A DNA stretch of 64,000 nt from a bacterium (GTDB lineage Bacteria > Verrucomicrobiota > Kiritimatiellia > RFP12 > UBA1067), in NCBI GenBank assembly GCA_037133395.1, contig JBAXOG010000006.1, positions 1,036 to 65,035 of the forward strand, in the 5' to 3' direction. Position numbers and translations under genes: made by a program. The notes under the pieces are model-generated. The model did not search any database, was not told the origin of the DNA, and saw nothing but the letters and a program-made list of their open reading frames with translations. Every line of letters starts with the position of its first letter. Position 1 is the first letter of the stretch. Shown in pieces: positions 7,245 through 20,492 of the stretch.

Positions 7245-7403
7245 GCCCTCAATCCAAGCAAGGACAACAGACAAATCTCTCCCCCGAGCGACAGTGTGCT
7301 TGACAGATACCCCGACGCTTCAGGAGATTAATACCCGCCTCATCGCCAATTGCGCAACAACCTGTTGCTCAATTACCTTTGGGTCACGTCTCAAAGTTAC
7401 CCT

Positions 7404-8123
7404 TTACCATTTTTCTGCATGGGAGAGGCCGAAAACCAAGAAGTCTTTGGCATCCTTGGCTAGCTCATTTTTACGCTCCTGCCAGTCTGGCAGGGCCCGG
7501 CCTAATGCTTGCCAGAAGGCGTGGCCATGATTGCGTTCGCGTAAGTGGATCAGCTCATGAAGGATGACATAGTCCACCAGTCGCACGGGAAGCTGGAGGA
7601 TCTTCCAGTTAAAGAAGAGAATGCCTTTCCGACCGCACGAACCCCACCTGAAGCCCAAATCACGGACATCCACGCCTGACGGCTGGCTTCCTGCGAGCCG
7701 GGAGAGTCTTTCAACCCTTCGCCGCAGCCACTCCATGCCTGTCTGGATGTACCAGCGCTGAAAGTGTTCTGCGGGCAATCCGCAATCGCTCTTTAATAAG
7801 AATCGCGTACCGTCGAACAGCAAGGGCGCTTCTTGACGTTTCACCATCTTTAGGCGGAAGCGCCGTCCGAGATAGCAGAATGATTCGCCGGACACGTATT
7901 CGGGTGAGCATATCTTGGGTAATGCCGCTTCTTTGAGCGCTAGTTTCCCGTGCACCCACAGAAGCTTCTTGTGTATCCAGTGGGAGAGTTCCCCGGTGGA
8001 GGTCTCAGTTGGAGCGTAAGCTACCAGCTCGCCGGCACGGCCCACGGTGAGCCCAAGGGTTTTGCGTCGGTCGCTGCGCCGCACCTCGAAGTTTAGGCCA
8101 CCGATTTGGAGTGCGTTGTTCAT
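7404..8123 (-). CDS. DUF45/YgjP-like (WLM/SprT-type) zinc metallohydrolase, last gene of the type I R-M operon
   Basis: HExxH motif in YVILHELIHLRERNHGHAFW. Its start overlaps the hsdR stop (ATGA at 8120-8123). Confidence 0.85.
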   Translation of the reverse strand: MNNALQIGGLNFEVRRSDRRKTLGLTVGRAGELVAYAPTETSTGELSHWIHKKLLWVHGKLALKEAALPKICSPEYVSGESFCYLGRRFRLKMVKRQEAPLLFDGTRFLLKSDCGLPAEHFQRWYIQTGMEWLRRRVERLSRLAGSQPSGVDVRDLGFRWGSCGRKGILFFNWKILQLPVRLVDYVILHELIHLRERNHGHAFWQALGRALPDWQERKNELAKDAKDFLVFGLSHAEKW

Positions 8124-11100
8124 GCGAGGGTTAGATTCTCGTGGTTTTCTTTGGCTAAGGCGACAAGGCGCTGGGCCATGTCGCGTTCGCTACCCGGACT
8201 ACAGAAGCGTGCTTGGTCGAGGTCGCGGACGAGTGTTTTGACCAGAAGTTCGCGCATGTCGGCATTCCGCCAGAACCCGACCTTCCGTATCTCCTGCCGG
8301 ATACGTTCCACCATCTCCAGTGTTGCCAATATGGCCTTGGCGCGTACTTCCGTTGAGAGCACCTGGCCTTTACTGCACTCCTCCAGCACAAGCCGCACGA
8401 AGGGCACTTGCACCTTGGGGTCGAGGTCAGGAAAGTCATTTCGGTCGCCCTGTTTCATGTCATCAATAAACGTGCGCAACTCGCGCTCCAGGGCATCGGC
8501 ATCATCCTTGAACTTCTTGAGAATCTCTTCCAGCCGTTCGCTCATCTTGCGGGCGTAGGAGGGATTTTGATTCGTGAAGCCGATAATGTGGTAGCGTGCG
8601 GCATGTTGCATCTGAGCGGCACGTGCCCGGCTCCCCTCTTGCGCCTTCAGGAGCTCTTCAAACTTTGCGTCGGTGATCGCCACCGGCGGAATCTTGGGGT
8701 CCACACCTCTGGCAGTGATATGGGCATTGATGAGCGCTTTCACCTTTTCGGCCACCCCCAGCAGGTTCAATGCTGGATCGCGATACAGGTTGGCCGCCAC
8801 CTTGTTGATGAAGCCCAGCAGCTTGGCATCGCGAAATACGTCACAGGGCACTTCAGGACGATGTTCCAGCAACCCGAGCGTCTCATAGAACTTACGAACC
8901 TTGTTGATGAAGTCGGCCCGTATCTTCAAATCGCCAAGCAACTGCACACAGTCTTCCACCTGCGCCTGGAGATCCGTCACACCCTTATCCGTAAAGACAG
9001 CAATCGCCCGCGCCCGCCGGTCAAGCAGCAACGGCAGCTCAACGCTAATGTCGATCATTGCGCCCTGAGTGTCTGTCTTGTCGTAGTCGCCCAGCGCTTC
9101 CGTCAGATGAAGGGCCACGCCGATGTAGTCCACCACATACCCGCATTTCTTTGCGCCATGCGTACGGTTTACACGGGCCACGGCCTGTAGCAGATCGTGC
9201 GCGAGGATCTTCCGGTCGAGGTACATCACCTGTTCGACCGGGGCATCAAACCCCGTCAGAAGCATGTTCATCACGACAAGGATGCAGAGCGGATCAGTCT
9301 TGTCGGTCTTTGCAGCGGAAAACTTCCGCTTGAACCGCTTGATGTTCGCTTCCTGTTTCTCCTTTGTTGTCCAATCCCTCCACGGTTCAGGGTCGTTGTG
9401 GTTTCCCGAGAAGATACCCGCGATCTCAAGAACGCGCAGATTCGCGAGTCGTGGATAGACCTTCAGGAGATAGCGGGTCTGGGCATCCAGCTTCAGCACT
9501 TCGTCGTCCGGCAGACACCGCACCGCTTCTGGCAGTGCCTCCAGTTCAGATACCAGTTCCTTCCGCGCCTTCTCCAGCTTTTCAAGATAGGTCACCACAG
9601 CCTGGCGGCTCGTGGCGACCACCTGAGCCTTAAAACCCTCTGGCAGCACCACGTCCGCATAATGCCGGATCATGTCCCTCGCCTTCTGCTCAATCAACAG
9701 GGGTGCTTCCATCACATCGCCTTCGGTGGCGTACTTGGCCTTGATGATGGACAACTCTTCTGGCTTGTAGTCGCGGAACATGTCTTCGAAAACAGCATCG
9801 AGGCTAAGCGCATCCTTCACCATGCCGTCCGCTGTCCGGCTCTCGTAGAGGATCGGCACGGTCGCGCCGTCCAGCTCTGCGTCCTGAAGAAGATATTTGT
9901 CGATGAAGTCGCCAAAGATCTCTTTCGTCTCTTTCTTCTCTTCGCTGATGATCGGCGTGCCCGTGAAGCCGATGACCGCCGCGTTCGGCATCGCCTTGCG
10001 CAAATTCCGGTGCAACGTGCGTGTGTTCGAACGGTGCGCCTCGTCCACGAGCACAAGGATCTCTTCCGAGTCATTCAGCAACGGGAACTCTTCGAACCGG
10101 ATATTTTCCGTGAAAGTGACTTCCTTTGTGACGACCGGCTCGTCCTTTCCAGGCTTCTTCTCTTTTCGGACAATCGTCATGGAGACGCTCTCCAGCGCCT
10201 CTTCGCTGGCGCATGTCAGCAGTCCTTTCACTGGCTTGCCGCCTGTTTCGCCCGAAGGCTGATATTTCTGCAACATCGCCATGACGATGTCGGGCGTCCG
10301 CTCGCCTAAGAGTCGTTGCGTCAGCGCCGTCGGTGATTCACGCGTCTTCAAATCCGTGTCGGTCGGACGTATCGCTTCGCCACTCAACTGCGCGGTCTGT
10401 CCGAGCTGCTCCTGCAGATCCGTACGGTCCGTGACCACCACGATCTTGAAACGGTGCAGGTCCGGGGTCATGCGCATCTTGCGGACCAGGAAGGCCATGC
10501 TGAGGCTCTTGCCCGACCCCTGCGTGTGCCAGATGATGCCCCCGCGCTCGTCGCGCGTGGCTCCGTCCGCAATCGTCCGCCCCTCCTGCAAACGCGCCAC
10601 CGCCTTGTGGATGGCACGGAACTGCTGATAGCGGGCCACCACCTTGCGCGTCTTGCCGTCCACCTGCTGGAAGACCGAGAAGTTCCTAATCAGGTCAATC
10701 AGGTGAGCGGGCCGCAACATGCCCGCAGTCAGGATCTGCTGGCTTTGGAGTGTGCACCCTTTCTGTTGCAACGCCTCTGGAAGCTGTTTATCCCTGCGGA
10801 AGAACAAGGGCGTGCCGGGGCGGTCCCCTTGCTCGGCCCCCAGTGTTCGCAACTCAGCCGCCGCGCTCCGCACGTCCTGAGCTTTGGGCAAGGTGCCCAC
10901 CTCCTCCGCCACGGTGCTCATGGGCACCGGACTGGTGTCCGCCCATTCCAGATAAGCCTCCGGCGGTGCGCCGATGGTGGCGGCACGCGCCTCGAAGAAG
11001 TCGCTGGCGATCAGCAACTGATTGGTGTGGAAGAGCCGCTCCACCCCTTCGCTCTCGGCGTACAGCGTCGGCCAAAGCTCGCGCCGCTGATTCGAGTAGC

Positions 11101-11650
11101 GAAGCAACTGGTTGATGGCCTCCTGCAAGGGACTCTCAATGCCGGGGCTCTTGAACTCCGCCACCGCTAGGGGGATGCCGTTGACAAAGAGCACCGCATC
11201 GGGAATGATGTGTCCGCGTCCGCTGGCCAGTTCTACCTTGAACTGGTTCATGACCAGAAAATCATTATTGGCGGGATTCTCAAAATCGATATAGTTGACA
11301 GGCTGAGGCCGTCCGTGTTCCCACTCCGGAAGACCATCCGTCACCGTGCCCTTGAGCAAGAGCGTCGTGGCCGACTGGTTCACCTCCATGAGCCGATGCC
11401 CCTCGGCCCGCTCCAGGTCCCGGATGGCGCGGCTGATGCGCGCGCTGTCCAACCACGCCTCGCCATCCCGCAGATTGAGCCGACGCAACGCCGCTTCCAA
11501 CCGCCCCTTCAGCAAGACCTCCCGGAAGCTCTCGCGCTCAGTCAACTCCGGCACATCGACATCGCCCTCTATCCACTGCCAGCCCATCGCCCGGAGTTGC
11601 TCGCAGAAAGGTTTTTCAACGAGGTCATATTCCCATTGGATCTTGCTCAT
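8120..11650 (-). CDS. hsdR: Type I restriction endonuclease subunit R
   Basis: 1176 aa. SF2 helicase motifs WHTQGSGKSLSM (motif I) and LVLVDEAHRS (DEAH). Typical HsdR N-terminus MSKIQWEYDLVEKPFCEQLRAMGWQW. Operon context with hsdM/hsdS. Confidence 0.95.
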   Translation of the reverse strand: MSKIQWEYDLVEKPFCEQLRAMGWQWIEGDVDVPELTERESFREVLLKGRLEAALRRLNLRDGEAWLDSARISRAIRDLERAEGHRLMEVNQSATTLLLKGTVTDGLPEWEHGRPQPVNYIDFENPANNDFLVMNQFKVELASGRGHIIPDAVLFVNGIPLAVAEFKSPGIESPLQEAINQLLRYSNQRRELWPTLYAESEGVERLFHTNQLLIASDFFEARAATIGAPPEAYLEWADTSPVPMSTVAEEVGTLPKAQDVRSAAAELRTLGAEQGDRPGTPLFFRRDKQLPEALQQKGCTLQSQQILTAGMLRPAHLIDLIRNFSVFQQVDGKTRKVVARYQQFRAIHKAVARLQEGRTIADGATRDERGGIIWHTQGSGKSLSMAFLVRKMRMTPDLHRFKIVVVTDRTDLQEQLGQTAQLSGEAIRPTDTDLKTRESPTALTQRLLGERTPDIVMAMLQKYQPSGETGGKPVKGLLTCASEEALESVSMTIVRKEKKPGKDEPVVTKEVTFTENIRFEEFPLLNDSEEILVLVDEAHRSNTRTLHRNLRKAMPNAAVIGFTGTPIISEEKKETKEIFGDFIDKYLLQDAELDGATVPILYESRTADGMVKDALSLDAVFEDMFRDYKPEELSIIKAKYATEGDVMEAPLLIEQKARDMIRHYADVVLPEGFKAQVVATSRQAVVTYLEKLEKARKELVSELEALPEAVRCLPDDEVLKLDAQTRYLLKVYPRLANLRVLEIAGIFSGNHNDPEPWRDWTTKEKQEANIKRFKRKFSAAKTDKTDPLCILVVMNMLLTGFDAPVEQVMYLDRKILAHDLLQAVARVNRTHGAKKCGYVVDYIGVALHLTEALGDYDKTDTQGAMIDISVELPLLLDRRARAIAVFTDKGVTDLQAQVEDCVQLLGDLKIRADFINKVRKFYETLGLLEHRPEVPCDVFRDAKLLGFINKVAANLYRDPALNLLGVAEKVKALINAHITARGVDPKIPPVAITDAKFEELLKAQEGSRARAAQMQHAARYHIIGFTNQNPSYARKMSERLEEILKKFKDDADALERELRTFIDDMKQGDRNDFPDLDPKVQVPFVRLVLEECSKGQVLSTEVRAKAILATLEMVERIRQEIRKVGFWRNADMRELLVKTLVRDLDQARFCSPGSERDMAQRLVALAKENHENLTLA

Positions 11651-13923
11651 ACCTTCACCCTTGCTTCTGCATTTTTGACCTTGCTCTTTTCCAGATCAGA
11701 GTCTTCAAGTATTCTAACCCACCAGTGGGGCAACTTGAGCTCAACATTACAAAGTTTCTTGCAGTTTGCAGGGAAATCTCGAAGTGAACCAACGGCGCGT
11801 GGATTTAACGGTTGAGCGGTTGCCGCATTCCATAGCGCACCTACGATTTCGGCTTCACTCAGTACTTTGATAACTCGCAGTGCATCACATTCAGGCGACG
11901 ACTCTTTTTTGAGCAGATAATTAAACCAAGCTATCAGCTCATATGCGTTCTGACGAATAACTGAGACAGTAGAAGACTCTTCCAATGTCCTTAACATCTC
12001 CTTGCGCAAATCACACCACAATGGCCCATTACAATCAAGGACGATTTGTTTAGCAGGATATGTAGCCCTTGTAAATGAGCGGAATTCGGTTTTTTTAAAC
12101 TGCTCGAGAACTTCTGCTGCATAACGCGGCACCATTAACTTCGACATCATTTTATAAAGATCTTTTATCTCTTCTCTTTCTATATCATGCTTGTATGAAG
12201 AAAAGGGCTCAATAATTTCTACTAATGGAGCTACAGGGCTTTGCCACTTGTCAACAAGATGACACAAGAAGTCTGTTTCCTTTTGCCTAGCAGCAACGTA
12301 AGCAGATGTGTTAGTAAAGTGCAAATATCTTTTGAAAGAGTCTAGGACTAGTTCAAAATCAGAAGCCAACAACTCATAACTGTGCTCGTCTATAGTGCGA
12401 AGGTCAAATGCTAACACCTCAAGAATCTTTAACAAATCATCAGCTACGGACAATTCTACTGTCATCCCATCTTCATCTATGGTTTCCGCTGCGCGATTTA
12501 AACTTTCTTCACGCGCAAGAACAGTAGTCTGGAATAAGGCTCTGTATACTCCTCTGGCCGACTGCCCCACCTTATCGGCATGCGCCTTTATCCAAACATC
12601 GAAAGCGTTTGCACTTGGTTTCTCCCGATGTATGGTGAAAAAACTATCATATTCCTTTAAAGTCACCGCAGCTGGAGCTTCTGCAAGACGCATCTGATAC
12701 ATCAATTTCTCATCGTCAATTCCTATCCATGCGCTAACATGCTCTGACAGCATAAGCAGAACAGAACCGATTTGTTCTTGCTCCTTTTCCGTTAATTCTA
12801 ACTCACAATCTTTTTTGACTTTTTGAATATGTGTTTTGATCAGTTCGCCCGCTTCGTTGTTATCAGCGGCATATACTGTTTTTATCCTGATATTGTCCCA
12901 TAGGTCTCTGTCTTCCAGAAGGGCAGGAGCAAGTCGTGGAAATCGTATTTTAATAACGTTTGCCGCTAGAATAATAGGCCAATTAACTTCATCTGCCCTA
13001 TGACGTTCGACTTGAATCTTCATTAACGAAAGCAAGCGAACAAACTGACGGACAGAACGCGCATTCTGAGGTAAATAGGGTATCACAGAGGCAAGCACAT
13101 TTATTGGCACGTAAGGACAATGAAGTGACACATCCGACTCAGCCATGTGTAGAAGATCATCCTTTGAGACGGCTGGAAGCCATCTTGGGTAGTCGATAAT
13201 TTTTTCAAGAAACTTGAGACCGTCATCAAAGCCTTCATGTTCTTTTGCAAGAATTTTACCAACAACAACAGGGTCAAAGGCGCAGATAAATACGATGCCA
13301 CCACAATTCATAATTTCTTTGATGGCATATAGCATCTCGGGTACGATCTTGCTACTCGTTCGATCAAGATCGTCGACTAGAATAATTAATCGGCCTTTTT
13401 CGTATTTCTGCAGGATTCCCTTTAGATCAGCCTCTTTTGAATAAAGAACTCCTTTGAGCAAATCAAGGCCAAGCAATGCAACACCCGCTTTTTTACTTTC
13501 TGCTACCGCATTGATGTCTTCACTATGCGCTAAGAGCCACTCAGATATGGGTGCCGCTCTTTTCTTTAAGCATTTCTTCCAAGACTGTTTCGTGTCTACT
13601 GCTTCAGCAGGAATTTTTTCAATCACAGCCTGCACGAATGCATGCCAAAGACTTTTCCTCTCGCTATATTCCCACGGATTGAAGCGAACAACAATGTGAC
13701 CGTGACTTTCAGCCAACGTGGCTATCATATTCAATACAGATGTCTTACCAGTTCCCCATTCGCCATATATCCCGATTCGCACAGGCCACTCTTTTGGTCC
13801 TGTAGTCGCTATGCCATAGATTTCGGAGGCAAACGCCCAGCGGTTCAACTTGTCCTCTTTCCGCTGAGACACAGCAGCATCAAAACCTCCCCCCCGAATA
13901 TCTATATCATTTTTTGTGGACAT
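11647..13923 (-). CDS. KAP-family P-loop NTPase embedded between hsdS and hsdR
   Basis: Walker A IYGEWGTGKTS and Walker B RLIILVDDLDR in KAP-like spacing. No obvious TM insert. The C-terminal ~450 aa are unassigned. ATGA overlap with hsdR and 1-nt gap to hsdS. Visibly AT-rich relative to neighbours. Confidence 0.85.
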   Translation of the reverse strand: MSTKNDIDIRGGGFDAAVSQRKEDKLNRWAFASEIYGIATTGPKEWPVRIGIYGEWGTGKTSVLNMIATLAESHGHIVVRFNPWEYSERKSLWHAFVQAVIEKIPAEAVDTKQSWKKCLKKRAAPISEWLLAHSEDINAVAESKKAGVALLGLDLLKGVLYSKEADLKGILQKYEKGRLIILVDDLDRTSSKIVPEMLYAIKEIMNCGGIVFICAFDPVVVGKILAKEHEGFDDGLKFLEKIIDYPRWLPAVSKDDLLHMAESDVSLHCPYVPINVLASVIPYLPQNARSVRQFVRLLSLMKIQVERHRADEVNWPIILAANVIKIRFPRLAPALLEDRDLWDNIRIKTVYAADNNEAGELIKTHIQKVKKDCELELTEKEQEQIGSVLLMLSEHVSAWIGIDDEKLMYQMRLAEAPAAVTLKEYDSFFTIHREKPSANAFDVWIKAHADKVGQSARGVYRALFQTTVLAREESLNRAAETIDEDGMTVELSVADDLLKILEVLAFDLRTIDEHSYELLASDFELVLDSFKRYLHFTNTSAYVAARQKETDFLCHLVDKWQSPVAPLVEIIEPFSSYKHDIEREEIKDLYKMMSKLMVPRYAAEVLEQFKKTEFRSFTRATYPAKQIVLDCNGPLWCDLRKEMLRTLEESSTVSVIRQNAYELIAWFNYLLKKESSPECDALRVIKVLSEAEIVGALWNAATAQPLNPRAVGSLRDFPANCKKLCNVELKLPHWWVRILEDSDLEKSKVKNAEARVKV

Positions 13924-13924
13924 A

Positions 13925-15193
13925 TCAGTTACTCCGCGTTATTTCCGACACCCGCACTCGACCCGTTAGCAAATCGTCCATCAGGCCGGACTTCATGAGG
14001 TTAAGTTTTGCGAGATTCGCTTCCTCTTGAAGGATAACTGAATCTGCTTGCTTCATTCGAGACACAACCAAAGCCTGTTCCTCTTTTTGCGGAAAACCAA
14101 ACTGCAAGTGAGAAAGCAATTTAGTGTTGAGGTTCACCATTGTTGTCCCCACTGCACGCGCGGCGATCTGACGTTGGCCTGTATCATGCCGATACGCAAG
14201 TGAGAGCCATTTAGACGAAAGGGTGTGTTCCTCAAAACGCATCAACAAGCAACCTGTTCCGCACAACCACCCAACTTCGCGTTCCGTAATCGCGGCACAA
14301 CGGGACAGGTCACCCCGTCGGGCAAAAATGAGGTCTCCTAATTTGACACGATGCCGTATTAGTTCGTCCGCTCTTGTAGATGGGATACGGGCTATTTTTT
14401 CGACACTGACAGACCCGCCGAGAACATCTTGAGGCATGATTACGGGCACACCTTCCGCCGTATACTCGTGCGCATGAAGCTGGCTGCCAAACGGCCCCGT
14501 TTGAATAGTCCCCTTGATTCTTTGAAGCCGTTCCCCCATCGACTCGAAAATCCACTCCTTCGGTATCCGTCCCAGCGGTGAATCTTGGAATTGTTCAGGA
14601 TGGGCGATGGGGTCGCGGAGGTGGCCGTGTTCATCGAGGCCGCAGGTGAGAAGGTCGTGAAGCAACCCGGCGCGCACCTGCCTCAGTTTCTCAATCACCG
14701 ACTCAGTCTTCGTAATCGTCTCGTCAATCGTGTCCAGCACTGCTGCGATGCGAGGATTGGATTCGTCAAACCATGGAATCGCCATACCTTCCACGTCTAT
14801 CCGACTAATAGCAACGAAAGTAGAACCTTGTGCCACGCGGGCGAGTGTTGGTGCCGAATATTTTATAGCATGCCACGCGAAACCTTGCTGGTCAGTATCA
14901 AAACGAATAGCTGATAGACCACGTCCAATAATCGTACGCTCTTTTGCCTGATTGAGTTCTCCGACTGGAGCACGTACACTTAACAACATATCGCCCGCTT
15001 CGGCGATGCGTGTAGGGGAAGTGCAACGAAGTCGTGGTAAAGGGTTTCGACATCGAAACTCAGCATTGCCTTGAATAAAGGGTAAGCCGTCGTTGTTCTC
15101 CGAACAAGCAGAGGAAGATGGTGACTGCCCCATGAGGACTTTTGCTTTCTCAGCTATATGAACTGTTCCTGCTTGTTTCATTGATAAACCCAA
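13925..15193 (-). CDS. hsdS: Type I restriction-modification specificity subunit S (two target-recognition domains)
   Basis: 422 aa. Conserved-region helices ...IEKLRQVRAGLLHDLLTCG... and ...LAKLNLMKSGLMDDLLTGRVRV are typical of HsdS central and C-terminal coiled-coil repeats. Confidence 0.9.
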   Translation of the reverse strand: MGLSMKQAGTVHIAEKAKVLMGQSPSSSACSENNDGLPFIQGNAEFRCRNPLPRLRCTSPTRIAEAGDMLLSVRAPVGELNQAKERTIIGRGLSAIRFDTDQQGFAWHAIKYSAPTLARVAQGSTFVAISRIDVEGMAIPWFDESNPRIAAVLDTIDETITKTESVIEKLRQVRAGLLHDLLTCGLDEHGHLRDPIAHPEQFQDSPLGRIPKEWIFESMGERLQRIKGTIQTGPFGSQLHAHEYTAEGVPVIMPQDVLGGSVSVEKIARIPSTRADELIRHRVKLGDLIFARRGDLSRCAAITEREVGWLCGTGCLLMRFEEHTLSSKWLSLAYRHDTGQRQIAARAVGTTMVNLNTKLLSHLQFGFPQKEEQALVVSRMKQADSVILQEEANLAKLNLMKSGLMDDLLTGRVRVSEITRSN

Positions 15194-15234
15194 ATCATGG
15201 TGAATTCATGGATAATGATTCCAGTTAAATGAAA

Positions 15235-15534
15235 TCACTTCAGCACCTCCCAGTGTCCGCCTTTGTCCGGGCCGATGCGGTGGAGGATATTTTCTGCCTT
15301 CAGTTTTCGGATATGCCACTCGATACCTTTGCGTGTGATTCCCAATTGAGACGCCATTTCGTCGGTGGAAATGTTCGCCGAAGCACAAACCAAGCCCAAA
15401 ATTTTTTCCCTAGTTTTCTCCCTAGCTTCTTGGGTAGTGTTCACCATATTTTCCAGAGGCGTTTTTGATGAGCCAATTGGCGAACCTATTGATGAACTTT
15501 TCCCCAGCGTTTTCATGGGCGTTTCTGCCGACAT
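15235..15534 (-). CDS. Small stand-alone winged-HTH protein, paralogous to the C-terminus of the upstream AlbA_2 protein (possible gene remnant)
   Basis: ISTDEMASQLGITRKGIEWHIRKLKAENILHRIGPDKGGHWEVLK aligns with IPELAEQLCMTTRGIEKHIVQLRDARQLLRIGGRKLGHWEVLK in the 515-aa protein. I trimmed the 197-aa track ORF to Met99 because its N-terminal part reads through a 27-bp inverted-repeat element. Confidence 0.45.
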   Translation of the reverse strand: MSAETPMKTLGKSSSIGSPIGSSKTPLENMVNTTQEAREKTREKILGLVCASANISTDEMASQLGITRKGIEWHIRKLKAENILHRIGPDKGGHWEVLK

Positions 15535-15607
15535 GCCTTTGCCTGTAACTTCAAAGTACGGAACCACATAATCCACAAAAAAATCAAAAAATGCTAATTC
15601 CCCTCTG

Positions 15608-15695
15608 CGGCTCACCGAGACGGTTCGCCCTACCCGCTTCGCACGGGGCATCTGCCTGATCCGAAGGAGGTAGGGCGAACCGTCTCGGTGAGCCG
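15608..15695. repeat. Palindromic element with perfect 27-bp inverted arms and a 34-nt loop
   Basis: CGGCTCACCGAGACGGTTCGCCCTACC (15608-15634) is the exact reverse complement of 15669-15695. Lies between the AlbA_2 gene stop and the orphan wHTH. Confidence 0.9.
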
Positions 15696-15824
15696 TAGTG
15701 TGTTTCGTGCATTTCAGATGCAAAAAAGTTACTCCTTCGTTTTCTCCAGCTCGGCTGGCGAGGCGCTTGTTCTGATGCCCCTCGCACACGGTCACAGCAA
15801 AAATGCCCCCCTCAATAGATGAAC

Positions 15825-17372
15825 TCACTTCAGCACCTCCCAGTGGCCAAGTTTTCGCCCACCTATTCGGAGAAGCTGTCTTGCATCCCTCAGTTGAACA
15901 ATATGCTTCTCAATGCCACGAGTCGTCATACACAACTGCTCAGCAAGTTCGGGAATAGTCATTTCCCGTTGGGTCGCCAACAGAGTAAGGATCTTTTCAC
16001 CCGTCTTTACCGAACTTTCTTTACCGAACTTCTTTACCGAACTTTTCACCCTAGTCTTTACCGAACTTTTCACCCTAGTTTTTACCGAAATGTCAGGCGA
16101 AAGGTTTTTTTCTTTAGTGCTTTCCTGGGCAGTATTTTCAGGGGTTTCTTGGGTAGTTTGCCCCTTTTTCTTTACCGAAGTTTCTGTCCTAGGTTTCACC
16201 GAAGTTTTTGTCCTAGTCTTTACCGAACTTTCAGGTGTTTCTCTAAGCGTTTCTTTAGGCGTTTCTTTGAGCGTTTCTTGGGTAGTCGCCTCACCCTCGG
16301 CAAAGGAGGGTCGGTTGAAGGAGATGATAAAGAGGTTGCCGACTTCACGGAAGATCACATCCGGAACATGTTTCAGAATCAAAGGCATGCCGCGCCCCCA
16401 GGCTTCGACCATCTCGATCCGGCGGAACAAGTCGGCAATCAACGGATTGCGCCGTTGCGAGACATATCCCTTGCGCAAGTCGTCGATCGTGATCAAACCG
16501 TACAGGCGTCCTGGACTCCTGATCTCGACGCGATCTTTGAAAACAGCCACCTGGACATAGTCAGAGTCGCAATAGTCGCGATGGCAAAAGGCATTGATAA
16601 TGGCCTCGCGCAACGCCTCGACCGGGATCTCCGGCACATCCACGCGATAGAGTCCTTCGAGCCGCATGCCGATATGAATATTCTTGAGGATGTACTTCTG
16701 GGCTTCTTCGATGAGTTCAAGAATGTCGCCGTCAAAATCGTGGCGGTCTAAGATCATGGCACTCTCTTGCGTGCCGAACACGGCGCAGCGCAACTGCATC
16801 GGAGCCGTTCGATCAAAGAACAGGGTCGCGGCGTTCAGCAAATGTCCGTTCTTGAGCAATCCCAGTTTCTTAAGCGCATTGACGGGATCATCCCACGTCA
16901 GACGGGCCCGTTCGACAAAGGCTCGCAACTTGACTTCATCCAAATCAGAGACCTTCTTGTCTGAGATTGCGCTGTCCCACGCATGTTGACCCTGATTCTT
17001 CGCGACGATCAGCCGTTCGAGTTCCCGTGCGCTGAGCTGGCGGTCTTCGTCCGCCACGCGCATATAGGCCCGTCCGTAGGCGTAATAGGGTGTCTCGGTT
17101 CCCTCGAACGTCACCTTGATGCAGACCGCCTGATCGACCGTCTCCGCCGTAATCTTGGGATAGATGCGAGGCTCGATGTGTGCTGCGATAGCCTGCGAGA
17201 TGTCGCGCAGGGTCTTGGCAGAGGCTGGCAGCCCGACGACTTGTCCGTTGTCCTTGATGCCAAACCAGAGTTCGCCTCTGCCATGCTTGTTCAGGATGGC
17301 TGAGATTGAGACCAGCCCGGCATGGAGTTCAGCGAGGCTTTTCTTAAGTTCGACTGTTTCGGATTCTTTCAT
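15825..17372 (-). CDS. AlbA_2 (Schlafen-type 'divergent AAA') + HATPase_c_4-like + low-complexity linker + winged-HTH protein
   Basis: N-terminus MKESETVELKKSL...GELWFGIKDNGQVVGL (AlbA_2 signature). EALREAIINAFCHRDY...RVEIRSPGRL (HATPase_c_4-like). C-terminal wHTH. ATGA overlap with the hsdM stop. Confidence 0.8.
   Translation of the reverse strand: MKESETVELKKSLAELHAGLVSISAILNKHGRGELWFGIKDNGQVVGLPASAKTLRDISQAIAAHIEPRIYPKITAETVDQAVCIKVTFEGTETPYYAYGRAYMRVADEDRQLSARELERLIVAKNQGQHAWDSAISDKKVSDLDEVKLRAFVERARLTWDDPVNALKKLGLLKNGHLLNAATLFFDRTAPMQLRCAVFGTQESAMILDRHDFDGDILELIEEAQKYILKNIHIGMRLEGLYRVDVPEIPVEALREAIINAFCHRDYCDSDYVQVAVFKDRVEIRSPGRLYGLITIDDLRKGYVSQRRNPLIADLFRRIEMVEAWGRGMPLILKHVPDVIFREVGNLFIISFNRPSFAEGEATTQETLKETPKETLRETPESSVKTRTKTSVKPRTETSVKKKGQTTQETPENTAQESTKEKNLSPDISVKTRVKSSVKTRVKSSVKKFGKESSVKTGEKILTLLATQREMTIPELAEQLCMTTRGIEKHIVQLRDARQLLRIGGRKLGHWEVLK
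16005..16285. repeat. Intragenic tandem repeats encoding the K/S/T/V/E-rich linker of the AlbA_2 protein
   Basis: Perfect 24-bp tandem CTTTACCGAACTTTTCACCCTAGT at 16032-16055 and 16056-16079, plus degenerate copies either side. Encodes ...SVKTRVKSSVKTRVKSSVKK... and ETLKETPKETLRETP... Confidence 0.85.
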
Positions 17373-20107
17373 GTTTCCTCCGGCTGGTAACCCAACACGC
17401 TCAGCATGCCCTTCATCTTGCCGGAAAGCGTGTCACGTTCGCGGGTCAGGTCTGTCAGCGTCACCCGATACTTGTCCCAGATCCCTTCGATGAAGCGCAC
17501 GAGCTGCTGACGCTTCTCGGACATCGCCGCGTCAAGGCCGGACTGGATGTCTTGCGCGAAGAGGTCAAGGACCAGGGCACGCTTGTCACTGTCGCTAATC
17601 GCGAGGCAGCGGCCTTTGAGTTCGTTCACGAATTCAGCGGTCAGGGTGCGGTAAAGCTCACGGGCTTCCGCGAGCTGAGTCTTGATCTGCTCATAGGGTT
17701 GAAGCAACTCAGCAAGTGTGCTCAGTTGGTCGTAGACCGCTTGAATCGCGACTTTTGCCGCCGAGGCGGCGCGTTTCTCTGCGGGGGTTGCCTTGGCTTT
17801 GCTTGCAACCTTCTCCAATTTTGCCAGCTCCTTGAGCGCATCCCGGTTCTCGGCCTTGAGTTCTTTGCTTTGGCGTTCAAGATCCTTGGCATAGTTCCAG
17901 GCAGTCAGTTCCTCCTCTTCCAGATCGTCAGGCGCGTTGCCCTGCTCAAACGCCTCTTTTTCAGCCTTGAGACGGGCAATGTCGGACTTGCTGTCGGAAA
18001 TACGTTTGAGATAGTCGGTCATGGTATGCTGAACGAGCTTATGTCCGAAGGGGTCGAAGGCGGGGCCAGTAGAATCGTCCTCCTCCAACGCATCCGCGAT
18101 GGTGTCCACCCAGCCGTCGATCACCCCTGGAAAGCCATTCTCCATGAGCGTCTTGAAATCAGGCAGCGTATCCGTCCACCACGTGGCGATCACGCCAGAC
18201 AGTTTAAAACGATCCAAGCAAGGTAGAAGCGGCGTCCCGCCGCTTTTCTTGGCCAGCGGCCAGACGCCGCACGGCGTATTAAGCGGCGAGACGCCGCTTC
18301 CACTTTGGGCAAGAGCCTCCACGAAGGTATCGAGCACCTCGGTGCGGACGCGGTTCAGGTCGCGGCGTTCCGGTAACGTCGCGAGACGGGGCGCATGCGC
18401 CGTCCACCACGTGTCGAGTTGCTCCTTCACGAAAGCGAGGCGGTTCTGGAGACCGGAGTCACCATCGACCCGTGCACGGATAAGCGTGCGCTCGGAGAGC
18501 GCTGGCGCGAAATCATAATAGGCAGCTTCGTCTTTCCGCAGTGAGAATACATGGTCGGAATCAAAGCCGAGGGCATCAAAGAGCGGACGATGCGTGGCCA
18601 CCTCCGCCACGGGCACGCCGCCGAGCAAGTGGGCGCGCACGTCGTGCGGTTCCGGGGGCGGCGAGTTGTCCACATAGCGCCGGATGTTAAGATTGAAATC
18701 GTTGGCCTCGCTGGCGATCTCCTCCAGCGTCACGACACGCGCATAGCCGTGAATATCTTCATAGCGGTCATAGGTCGAGGCGATCTTCTCGATGTGCTCA
18801 GGACGCAGGTAGTTCTGGGCGCGTCCTTCATGGAACTCCGCGTCGGCATTGATGAAGAGCACCTTGCGGCGGCGATTCTCCGGCTTGTGCGGATTGGGAG
18901 GCGTGCCAATAAGATTAGGCCGCATCACGATTACGCAGGCGGGGATGCCTGCGCCATAGAATAGGTTCTGCGGTAGACCGATGACAGCCTCGACGATATC
19001 CTGCTCCAGGAATTTCTTGCGGATCTCCCGTTCCGCACCGCCGCGGAAGAGCACGCCATGCGGCATCACGGTGGCGACCATGCCGCCCGGCTTGCAGACG
19101 GCAAGCATGTGCTGGGCGAACATGAGGTCGCCTTTCTTGCCTGTTGTCGGACACCAGCCCCAGCGGAAACGTTCAGGGAACTCCATGTTGCTCTTGGTGT
19201 AGTTCTGGCTGAAGGGCGGATTGGCGATCACGCGGTCAAACCGTTCCAGTTCACCGCCCTCACGATGCAGAGGATGCAGCAGCGTATCCTCAAGCTGGAT
19301 GTCCGCGCCGGACACGCCATGCAAGAGCATATTGAGCCGGCAAATGGCCCAAGCAGAGGCATCATTGACCTGACCGCAGAGACGCAGGTTCGTCGGGTCG
19401 CCCCCTGACTGTTCGACAAACTCTCGGGTGATGATAAGCATGCCACCTGAACCGCAGGTGGGGTCATAGACCTTCATGCCTGCTGCAGGCTTGAGGATAC
19501 GGACCATCAGGCGGATCACATCACGCGGCGTATAGAAGTCGCCGCCCTTCTTGCCTGCCGACTCGGCGAACATATTGATCAGGAACTCGTAAGCCGCGCC
19601 TAGCAGATCAGAGAATTGGAAATCTTCATTCCGGAGACGATAACGGCTGAAGATCCGGACAATGTCCTTACAGGCTTCATCCGAGATGATGCGCTTGGTC
19701 CCCTGCACACGCATGAAACTGATGTGATCCAAGACGTGTTGGAGTGACTCGTTCGACTCCCCCAGCGCATCAAGGGCCTTATCGAGGACTTTTCCGTAGG
19801 CCTCCGTCGCATCATTTAGCTTATCCTGGAGAAACTCCCAGCGGGCACGGTCAGGAACAAAAAAGCCGTCATAAAAATCAGGATTCTCACCATACGTTTG
19901 GGAAGCCTCATGTGTGGCCATACCCTGTTCGACCTTGCGTCCGACGATCCGCTCGCGTTCAGCGTCGAAAACATCTGAGCAACGCTTCAAAAACAGAATG
20001 CCGAAGATATAATCCTTGTACGTGGCGGCATCCAGCCCCTCCTGGCGAAGGCGGTCAGCAACGGAATAGAGGTGGCGTTCAAGCTTGGCAAGTGACAATC
20101 GGGGCAT
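17369..20107 (-). CDS. hsdM: Type I R-M N6-adenine DNA methyltransferase subunit M, unusually long (912 aa) with ~430-aa C-terminal coiled-coil-rich extension
   Basis: HsdM_N-like N-terminus (LERHLYSVADRLR...). SAM motif VYDPTCGSGGML. Catalytic VIANPPFS. The extension is rich in heptad-like K/E/A/L sequence. Confidence 0.95.
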   Translation of the reverse strand: MPRLSLAKLERHLYSVADRLRQEGLDAATYKDYIFGILFLKRCSDVFDAERERIVGRKVEQGMATHEASQTYGENPDFYDGFFVPDRARWEFLQDKLNDATEAYGKVLDKALDALGESNESLQHVLDHISFMRVQGTKRIISDEACKDIVRIFSRYRLRNEDFQFSDLLGAAYEFLINMFAESAGKKGGDFYTPRDVIRLMVRILKPAAGMKVYDPTCGSGGMLIITREFVEQSGGDPTNLRLCGQVNDASAWAICRLNMLLHGVSGADIQLEDTLLHPLHREGGELERFDRVIANPPFSQNYTKSNMEFPERFRWGWCPTTGKKGDLMFAQHMLAVCKPGGMVATVMPHGVLFRGGAEREIRKKFLEQDIVEAVIGLPQNLFYGAGIPACVIVMRPNLIGTPPNPHKPENRRRKVLFINADAEFHEGRAQNYLRPEHIEKIASTYDRYEDIHGYARVVTLEEIASEANDFNLNIRRYVDNSPPPEPHDVRAHLLGGVPVAEVATHRPLFDALGFDSDHVFSLRKDEAAYYDFAPALSERTLIRARVDGDSGLQNRLAFVKEQLDTWWTAHAPRLATLPERRDLNRVRTEVLDTFVEALAQSGSGVSPLNTPCGVWPLAKKSGGTPLLPCLDRFKLSGVIATWWTDTLPDFKTLMENGFPGVIDGWVDTIADALEEDDSTGPAFDPFGHKLVQHTMTDYLKRISDSKSDIARLKAEKEAFEQGNAPDDLEEEELTAWNYAKDLERQSKELKAENRDALKELAKLEKVASKAKATPAEKRAASAAKVAIQAVYDQLSTLAELLQPYEQIKTQLAEARELYRTLTAEFVNELKGRCLAISDSDKRALVLDLFAQDIQSGLDAAMSEKRQQLVRFIEGIWDKYRVTLTDLTRERDTLSGKMKGMLSVLGYQPEET
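18226..18300. repeat. In-frame palindromic repeat element inside hsdM: two AAGCGGCG-NNN-CGCCGCTT hairpin units flanking nested mini-hairpins
   Basis: Unit 1 is 18227-18245 (loop TCC) and unit 2 is 18281-18299 (loop AGA). Between them are TGGCCAGCGGCCA and ACGCCGCACGGCGT. The span is 75 bp (25 codons), encoding roughly SGSGVSPLNTPCGVWPLAKKSGGTPLLP. Confidence 0.7.
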
Positions 20108-20391
20108 AAGGTTCTCATTCTATAAAGAGGGAAATTATTAATCACCCATGAATGGGAACTATTATGCTTTTGGGCGTGCAAATAGTCAACTCCTATCTTG
20201 ATCGGCTTCGAGGGTTGAAAAGCGCATCCGGCAATGGCGCTGTCGTGGAAGCGCGGGGATCGGCAATCCTCAAAAAAAGGCGCTCTTTCGCGTGTCGCTT
20301 TCATTACTTGAGATACAGCTTCTTCAAAAGCAAGGTGTATGCTTGGCCATAGTTGATACAACGAACTCCATGCACGTCAGGCCTTATCAAT

Positions 20392-20458
20392 TTGTCAGCA
20401 TTGGGAAGACCGCTGACAACTAGCGCAAAATTCAAGTAGAATCTTAAGATTGCGCTAG
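20392..20458 (-). terminator. Two tandem hairpins downstream of the Rrf2 operon
   Basis: TTGTCAGC-N12-GCTGACAA (20392-20419) and CTAGCGCAA-N21-TTGCGCTAG (20420-20458), 35-100 nt after the Rrf2 stop. No strong U-tract. Confidence 0.4.
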
Positions 20459-20492
20459 ATTAACCTCGTTTGGGAAAAGACAAAGCTTTCGC

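Follow-up and report, generated by a model that had tools for sequence, protein, structure and literature searches.

Prokaryotic Schlafen proteins (pSlfn), including a HisKinase-HTH class that carries a domain of the helix-turn-helix (HTH) type, have recently been defined (Perez Taboada et al., Nat Microbiol 2026, PMC13056530). The commonest architecture is pSlfn-HisKinase (34%), followed by pSlfn-HisKinase-HTH (19.2%) (PMC13056530). The combination of the SLFN domain with PF13749 has also been named 'Schlatpase' and counted in 60,692 proteins (bioRxiv 10.64898/2026.05.29.728809). Here we analyze a gene for a 515-residue protein of this kind (P0001), which lies inside a type I restriction-modification (R-M) operon. 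It is found in a 64,000-nucleotide stretch of contig JBAXOG010000006.1 (assembly GCA_037133395.1) from a bacterium of the class Kiritimatiellia; the whole stretch is referred to as the window. Labels of the form P0001 denote proteins, L0xx denotes loci and G000 is the window's own genome. The window protein belongs to the HisKinase-HTH class, that is, it is a 'Schlatpase'-HTH protein; both the class and its link to R-M were already published in 2026.

The catalytic motif of Schlafen nucleases, Ex4(E/D)xK, has been proven by mutation in RorSlfn5 (E15/D20; PMC13056530) and in CbCash (E17/D22/K24; PMC13462974), both of which cleave tRNA by means of it. The pSlfn HisKinase-HTH proteins share with the window gene the three-part architecture, the motif and the defence-island context (PMC13056530). 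The SLFN-pAgo protein RzAgo contains the same SLFN_AlbA_2 and PF13749 GHKL unit, which binds ATP, tetramerises in an ATP-driven manner and cuts tRNA (bioRxiv 10.64898/2026.05.29.728809). This tetramerisation, through which the nuclease is assembled, is established for RzAgo only. Compared with RzAgo, the only extra module of the window protein is a winged HTH (wHTH) of about 60 residues on a repeat linker. The same preprint describes stand-alone Schlatpase-HTH proteins, an HTH in >90% of structurally annotated Schlatpase C-terminal tails, and, in Poribacteria, Schlatpase genes that are part of type I R-M systems or fused to them. Weickert et al. (Nat Commun 2026, PMC13462974) describe clusters of Schlafen, ATPase and DNA-binding parts as 'tightly associated' with BREX, R-M and type I CRISPR. 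A BREX survey found Schlafen-HisKinase-wHTH proteins in BREX loci and read them as a back-up suicidal RNase (NAR 2026, PMC12839542). The proteins in these clusters are of the same class as the window protein and are likewise nested in nuclease-based defence loci; the statements on the R-M and BREX link in both papers are bioinformatic. Cash senses cA4 through Csx15, a sensor different from the wHTH tail of the window protein. In view of these four reports (PMC13056530, PMC13462974, PMC12839542 and the preprint), an earlier note on this DNA is no longer current where it says that most bacterial members have no annotation beyond that of a putative regulator.

The window gene shares its position inside a type I hsd operon with prrC, although prrC sits in the slot between hsdS and hsdR and the window gene between hsdM and hsdS. 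In the PrrC/EcoprrI system, the anticodon nuclease PrrC is a tRNA-cutting back-up effector. Proof of silencing by EcoprrI and of activation by T4 Stp exists for PrrC alone. PrrC is unrelated to the window protein and consists of an ABC-type NTPase and a nuclease domain of its own. The window protein has no Pfam, NCBIfam or PADLOC match to the PrrC-type family (ABC-type NTPase plus anticodon nuclease).

Our preferred reading, to which we assign a probability of roughly 60%, is that the window protein, which combines a Schlafen RNase, a GHKL ATPase, a flexible repeat linker and a variable wHTH, is a back-up effector against phages, namely a latent tRNase gated by ATP. According to this reading, the protein would be made from the R-M operon as a latent tRNA endonuclease whose N-terminal Schlafen RNase retains an intact Ex4ExK motif. 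The GHKL domain would gate the nuclease through ATP, and the wHTH tail would serve as a sensing or tethering module. Phage infection would activate the nuclease, tRNA would be cut and the infection aborted, providing an abortive-infection-type second line of defence behind restriction. The proposed activity, gating and trigger are modelled on RzAgo, Cash and RorSlfn5. What the locus and its relatives show, as set out below, is the identity of the domains, the conservation of their residues, the fold, the embedding in the operon, the strong enrichment beside hsdM and the exchange of the tail.

The SLFN_AlbA_2 domain (PF04326) was mapped to residues 3-113 (E = 4e-16; 60 bits, cut-off 25.3) and HATPase_c_4 (PF13749) to residues 272-336 (E = 5.9e-19; 68 bits, cut-off 26). 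The two domains thus occur in one polypeptide in the order of the Schlatpase supradomain. The C-terminal tail has three helices and a beta wing in the first AlphaFold2 (AF2) model, with a predicted local distance difference test score (pLDDT) of about 92, and the family profile matches solved wHTH proteins of the ArsR/Lrp/MarR type (E = 1.5e-3 and weaker). Residue conservation was examined in alignment A1, consisting of 31 close homologues, and in alignment A4, consisting of 99 diverse sequences down to 30% identity. The N-terminus reads M-K-E3-S-E-T-V-E8-L-K10, and E3, E8 and K10 are invariant in A1 and at least 90% conserved in A4. The ATPase residues E256, N260, G288, G326 and G328 are likewise invariant in A1, and in A4 their conservation is complete or at least 90%; P287 is also conserved. 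As read from the alignment, E256 and N260 would represent the N-box, P287-G288 the G1 box, and G326 and G328 the G2 box. We also considered D41 as a third acidic residue, but dropped it as it is not conserved in the 31 homologues and is not part of the motif in the bacterial literature. A 595-residue paralogue (L005/L092) is without a clean Ex4ExK motif, reading E-P-K-R-W-D-W-Q-K instead; judging by this, it may be catalytically altered.

The first AF2 run, made for the full-length protein with the 31 close homologues, reached a pLDDT of 59 and was replaced by a run for the 356-residue core with the 99 diverse sequences, which gave a mean pLDDT of 94.2. In a Foldseek search against the PDB, the best match of the core model was 3lmm (E = 2.8e-23). 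Further matches were the nuclease domains of SLFN12, 14, 5, 13 and 11 (E = 4.6e-5 to 7e-4, probability 0.99-1.0) and the tRNase domain of SAMD9 (probability 0.99-1.0), and the GHKL part matched the ATP-binding/catalytic domains of histidine kinases, PDK and BCKDK. At the domain level, the core model therefore has the fold of the Schlafen C-lobe. The structure 3lmm is also the sole PDB match by sequence (E = 7.8e-11). It represents DIP2311 of Corynebacterium diphtheriae, a full-length structure of the family with AlbA_2, GHKL and a C-terminal wHTH; this structural-genomics entry has no assigned function and is about 21% identical to the window protein. In addition, PADLOC aligned residues 22-292 of the window protein to its SLFN-pAgo model.

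The operon is on the minus strand and contains, in this order, hsdM, the Schlafen gene, an orphan wHTH, hsdS, a KAP NTPase gene, hsdR and a gene for a YgjP-like metallopeptidase (Table 1). The ATG of the Schlafen gene (17372-17370) overlaps the TGA of hsdM (17371-17369), the two genes sharing 4 nucleotides; the junction reads ...GAG GAA ACA TGA with ATGAAAGAATCC, and GGAGGA is present 5 nucleotides upstream of the ATG. The start codon overlapping the hsdM stop predicts co-expression of the Schlafen gene with the type I R-M operon. What the earlier note had read from the letters is confirmed. Pfam, the repeat search and AF2 agree on AlbA_2, HATPase_c_4, a repeat-encoded linker and a wHTH in one frame of 515 residues; the gene does start on the hsdM stop; and domain and PADLOC matches identify hsdM, hsdS, the KAP NTPase and hsdR in its surroundings. 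The placement between hsdM and hsdS stands as an operon position, except that the orphan wHTH and a palindromic repeat intervene before hsdS. The earlier note also counted the Schlafen protein and the KAP NTPase as two extra components of the R-M system; the present data give no sign of joint action of the two.

The locus was compared with two related genomes. In G003, a genome of the same genus (locus L094), Rrf2 is joined directly to the sequence corresponding to window position 7274, and therefore the segment 7275-20471 is an island. In the sister genome G002 (L007, OW818680.1), an orthologue of 456 residues (P0007) is located directly after Rrf2 without any hsd genes. According to blastn, the ATG is the exact starting point of the homology between the window and G002, which extends as far as the stop codon of the orphan tail. 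The two genes are 89.3% identical over 1113 nucleotides, with a ratio of non-synonymous to synonymous differences (pN/pS) of 0.10. Hence, the gene can be kept by purifying selection even where no R-M genes adjoin it. This orthologue suggests a self-contained Schlafen protein that is a passenger of the operon and not an obligate subunit of the R-M system. In G003, a different insert of 9.4 kb is present nearby; at the same Rrf2-cysK site, positions 1708-9989 of L094 (G003:C25) encode a YhcG/DUF1016 nuclease and a 2342-residue protein without any Pfam or PADLOC match. Judging from this, the Rrf2-cysK site resembles a hot spot of island exchange.

To see how widespread the association with restriction genes is, we considered 80 loci of the close subfamily, with genes called by a simple longest-ORF (open reading frame) scheme. 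The linkage to hsd genes, which the earlier note proposed to examine by neighbourhood statistics, is borne out: in 30 of 59 informative loci, the window included, a same-strand hsdM is found no more than 2.6 kb upstream. The immediate upstream gene is N6_Mtase/HsdM in 22 of the 56 loci scanned and the immediate downstream gene is HsdS (Methylase_S) in 17 of 46. A same-strand upstream gene overlaps the start codon in 29 of 62 cases. This subfamily is thus strongly enriched next to hsdM. The remaining neighbours are of the kinds that commonly accompany hsd genes (YhcG/DUF1016, ORF6N, KilA-N, RhuM, AbiE and DUF4143). G000 itself encodes five full-length paralogues, counting the window gene, and four of the five (three of the four others) are in restriction-type loci. 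Two are located between res and mod of type III R-M systems (L090, G000:C202, 548-7186; L092, G000:C1, 5843-13432), and in L090 the start of the Schlafen-GHKL gene overlaps the res stop. Another (L091, G000:C74, 1-10351) adjoins AbiEi_2, and genes downstream of it encode an HKD+SNF2 helicase, which is DrmD/BrxH-like and labeled 'HKD+Snf2' by PADLOC, as well as a type IIG/PglX-like methylase; the locus may be a BREX-related system. At the locus of the fifth paralogue no restriction context was seen. A Rosetta-stone search among the representatives revealed no fusions to R-M domains; all that it turned up were Schlatpase-HTH units in tandem and proteins bearing two wHTHs. One representative of 2918 residues (P0149) has two Schlafen-GHKL-HTH units in tandem, possibly as an artefact of gene calling or assembly.

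The C-terminal part of the protein evolves differently from the rest. Mean pairwise identity is 0.70 for the Schlafen domain, 0.66 for the middle region and 0.80 for the GHKL domain, but only 0.39 for the tail, and core and tail identities correlate weakly (r = 0.31). Some locus pairs have cores that are 96-97% identical and tails that are 26-33% identical. In four comparisons between Chlorobiaceae, DNA homology of 92-94% breaks at one point, the start of the linker, and picks up again in the hsdS central repeat and hsdR. Displaced tails are also found elsewhere: in L064, the current tail is followed by an orphan tail of the L029 type, and a similar remnant is seen in L037. To judge from these alignments, the linker-wHTH tail is a hypervariable, exchangeable cassette, and its exchange is a family-wide habit. 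Hypervariability of this kind is typical of the sensor domains of defence proteins. The pattern points to the wHTH as the putative specificity-determining part.

The window locus has retained an example of such an exchange. A segment of about 730 nucleotides, absent from the G002 orthologue, contains the new repeat linker, the new wHTH, a stop codon, a 3' flank resembling that of L008 and a palindromic element. An imperfect 20-nucleotide direct repeat (16259-16278 and 15507-15526) brackets this insertion. Window positions 15848-15722 are 85% identical to L008 11462-11588 (about 100 nucleotides; the 3' flank of a Lentisphaerales allele). The linker consists of two blocks of 24-nucleotide tandem repeats (15993-16089 and 16170-16232) and of 12-nucleotide repeats (16237-16279), and is longer than in most relatives, as seen from gaps against homologues of 440-470 residues. 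The current tail clusters with those of L010-L012, L014 and L030 and is P0004/P0005-like, P0004 being the closest homologue of the window protein. The orphan tail is 92-97% identical to the tail of the G002 orthologue at the nucleotide level and matches HTH_24 with 30.4 bits (cut-off 21.9). Its pN/pS against the G002 tail is 0.14, derived from 15 differences only, with no non-synonymous excess. Judging from the G002 comparison, the new tail was recently inserted into the window gene and the original one survives as the orphan at 15235-15534. The orphan could be either a recent leftover or an expressed stand-alone wHTH. In polymorphic toxin loci of the Rhs/CdiA type, a new 3' cassette likewise enters at a constant hinge point, and the former 3' end stays behind as a downstream orphan. 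However, those loci exchange a toxin tip together with an immunity gene, whereas the window locus exchanges the DNA-binding wHTH of a defence protein.

We asked whether the tail shares its DNA specificity with HsdS and rejected this idea, as tails and HsdS target-recognition domains (TRDs) do not co-vary across the loci (correlation 0.25-0.32). For example, the tails of L071 and L084 are 91% identical and their TRDs only 26%. Tail type does not predict the presence of hsdM either, since tail clusters mix loci with and without hsdM.

Several points weigh against the reading of the window protein as a back-up tRNase. HisKinase-fused pSlfn expressed alone in Escherichia coli gave no defence phenotype, and the same study proved tRNase activity and defence only for the Ig-like (RorSlfn5) and DUF262 fusions (PMC13056530). 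The HTH_11 match in the tail (residues 459-497) scores 21.3 bits, slightly under the Pfam cut-off of 25. Unrelated passengers (YhcG, ORF6N, RhuM, AbiE and KAP) occupy the same operon slots. About half of the close relatives, as well as the G002 orthologue, are not beside hsdM; therefore, the data do not require a coupling to the restriction enzyme. Such a coupling is what a guard in the manner of PrrC would involve: the Schlafen protein would be held silent by the type I enzyme, or would watch it, with one dedicated guard for each restriction system. We regard this as possible, though a minority option. The trigger, named just as tentatively, would be a phage anti-restriction factor that disables the enzyme, or restriction products such as DNA ends and single-stranded DNA. 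Translational coupling to hsdM, the frequent hsdM adjacency and the placement of four G000 paralogues in four different restriction-type loci all agree with a guard, and so does the fact that the published links to R-M, BREX and type I CRISPR are all to DNA-targeting systems (PMC13462974, PMC12839542). The lack of defence by a HisKinase-class pSlfn on its own also fits the need for a partner (PMC13056530). However, at the same chromosomal site in G002 the orthologue is maintained by purifying selection without hsd genes, tail type tracks neither hsdM presence nor the TRDs, and there is no sequence relation to PrrC. An extended version, in our view rather unlikely, is that the linker-wHTH is a cassette-exchanged specificity module that diversifies in the same hypervariable block as the HsdS TRDs, with displaced tails kept. 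Each R-M system would then carry its own Schlafen-ATPase 'guard', the tail of which would sense a restriction-tied infection cue, be it an anti-restriction DNA mimic or DNA that restriction produces, and tRNase firing would depend on the state of the R-M enzyme.

The earlier note had left the choice between a regulator of hsd expression and a sensor or effector. The wHTH of ArsR/Lrp/MarR type, the early operon position and the old COG2865 label 'predicted transcriptional regulator' would be compatible with a controller that, similarly to R-M controller (C) proteins, binds the operon promoter and times the expression of methylase and nuclease. Yet C proteins are stand-alone Xre-type HTH proteins of about 80-100 residues with an operator (C-box) ahead of their own gene. 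The window protein, in contrast, is a multidomain, enzyme-like protein with an ArsR/MarR-like wHTH, and its gene is inside the operon, not ahead of it. The catalytic residues of both the nuclease and the ATPase are strictly conserved, which is needless for a pure regulator; the AlbA_2 catalytic site, the loss of which the earlier note had considered, is retained. In near-identical Chlorobiaceae operons (92-94%), the 800 nucleotides upstream of hsdM are 94% identical despite tails of only 26-33% identity. The conserved enzymatic residues, the promoters conserved beside unrelated tails and the survival of the G002 orthologue with no hsd genes around it weaken the regulator reading to the point of being improbable, and of the two options the sensor or effector is the better supported. 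Even less credible is a non-nuclease DNA-binding ATPase or 'RecG-like helicase' that would handle DNA rather than RNA. It derives from source names of homologues such as 'ATP-dependent DNA helicase RecG', 'divergent AAA domain protein' and 'putative DNA binding domain-containing protein', and it could draw on some mammalian Schlafens and the SAMD9 AlbA_2 domain binding DNA (PDB titles). However, Pfam and NCBIfam scans detected no helicase or AAA domain in the 515-residue protein, PF13749 has the GHKL fold and not that of a helicase (Foldseek; bioRxiv 10.64898/2026.05.29.728809), and the RNase motif is intact.

New in the present analysis are the counts of hsdM proximity, the G000 paralogues in restriction loci, the G002 orthologue without R-M genes and the tail swap with its orphan. 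The locus provides a useful natural contrast but no new principle. The same gene occurs with a type I R-M system in G000 and without one in G002, two alternative tails, one current and one orphan, are present in one locus, and sibling paralogues reside in type III and helicase-methylase systems of the same genome. These contrasts make tail-swap and operon-deletion tests easy to design.

Table 1. Features of the Schlafen gene and its operon (window positions)
Feature	Position	Strand	Basis
Schlafen-GHKL-wHTH ('Schlatpase'-HTH) gene, 515 aa, P0001	15825..17372	-	ORF and translation, Pfam, homologues
Schlafen (AlbA_2) nuclease domain, aa 1-115	17028..17372	-	Pfam, AF2, Foldseek
Codons E3-S-E-T-V-E8-L-K10, Schlafen catalytic motif Ex4ExK	17343..17366	-	Alignments A1, A4
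GHKL (HATPase_c_4) ATPase domain, aa 246-356	16305..16637	-	Pfam, motif residues, Foldseek
Low-complexity K/T/S/E-rich linker, 12- and 24-nt tandem repeats	16008..16304	-	Repeat search, alignment gaps
Current C-terminal wHTH tail, aa 456-515	15828..16007	-	HTH_11, pLDDT ~92, tail clustering
Segment of ~730 nt absent from G002 orthologue	15527..16258	-	blastn of L007 against window
Palindromic element, 46-nt arms, dispersed REP-like family	15605..15698	.	Repeat search; copies on other contigs
Orphan wHTH, original tail displaced downstream, intact 99-codon frame from ATG	15235..15534	-	G002 comparison
hsdM, 912 aa, long C-terminal extension	17369..20107	-	N6_Mtase and HsdM_N; PADLOC MTase_I
hsdS	13925..15193	-	Methylase_S; PADLOC Specificity_I
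KAP-family P-loop NTPase, PifA/QatA-like N-terminal part	11647..13923	-	Family matches and PADLOC
hsdR	8120..11650	-	HSDR_N, SWI2_SNF2, TIGR00348
YgjP-like (DUF45) metallopeptidase gene, operon end	7404..8123	-	PF01863, E 8.9e-48
Island of 13.2 kb with whole operon	7275..20471	.	Absent from same-genus genome G003

Homologues of the window protein are numerous. There are 1760+ among the scored candidates, and in the library clustered at 50% identity, E<=1e-3 is reached by 12,934 cluster representatives and E<=1e-10 by 5,583. Close relatives are almost absent from the plasmid and phage collections (2 and 15 records, respectively). Two antisense ORFs (15819-16751 and 15913-16560) were set aside, being without a family match. 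A 197-residue ORF (15235-15828) was rejected as a gene since it is a chimera, the first 97 residues of which read through the dispersed palindromic repeat and have no Pfam match. The palindromic element, about 100 nucleotides long, has some 25 or more other copies in G000 with 80-97% identity (e.g. C153:6357-6460 and C30:34301-34404), like REP or MITE sequences.

The C-terminal half of HsdM (17369-18670) extends about 400 residues beyond the usual length. The long HsdM is a recurrent variant, because HsdM proteins of the relatives L011, L014 and L079 are similarly long (887-904 residues) and the PADLOC model MTase_I PDLC03027 aligns over residues 8-908. At the other end of the operon, the YgjP-like gene overlaps the hsdR stop, and genes for HExxH proteins also follow hsdR in L012, L019 and L054. 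Finally, two library representatives (P0142 and P0247) have two wHTH domains in tandem, the state that would be reached at the window locus if the stop codon between the current and the orphan tails were lost.

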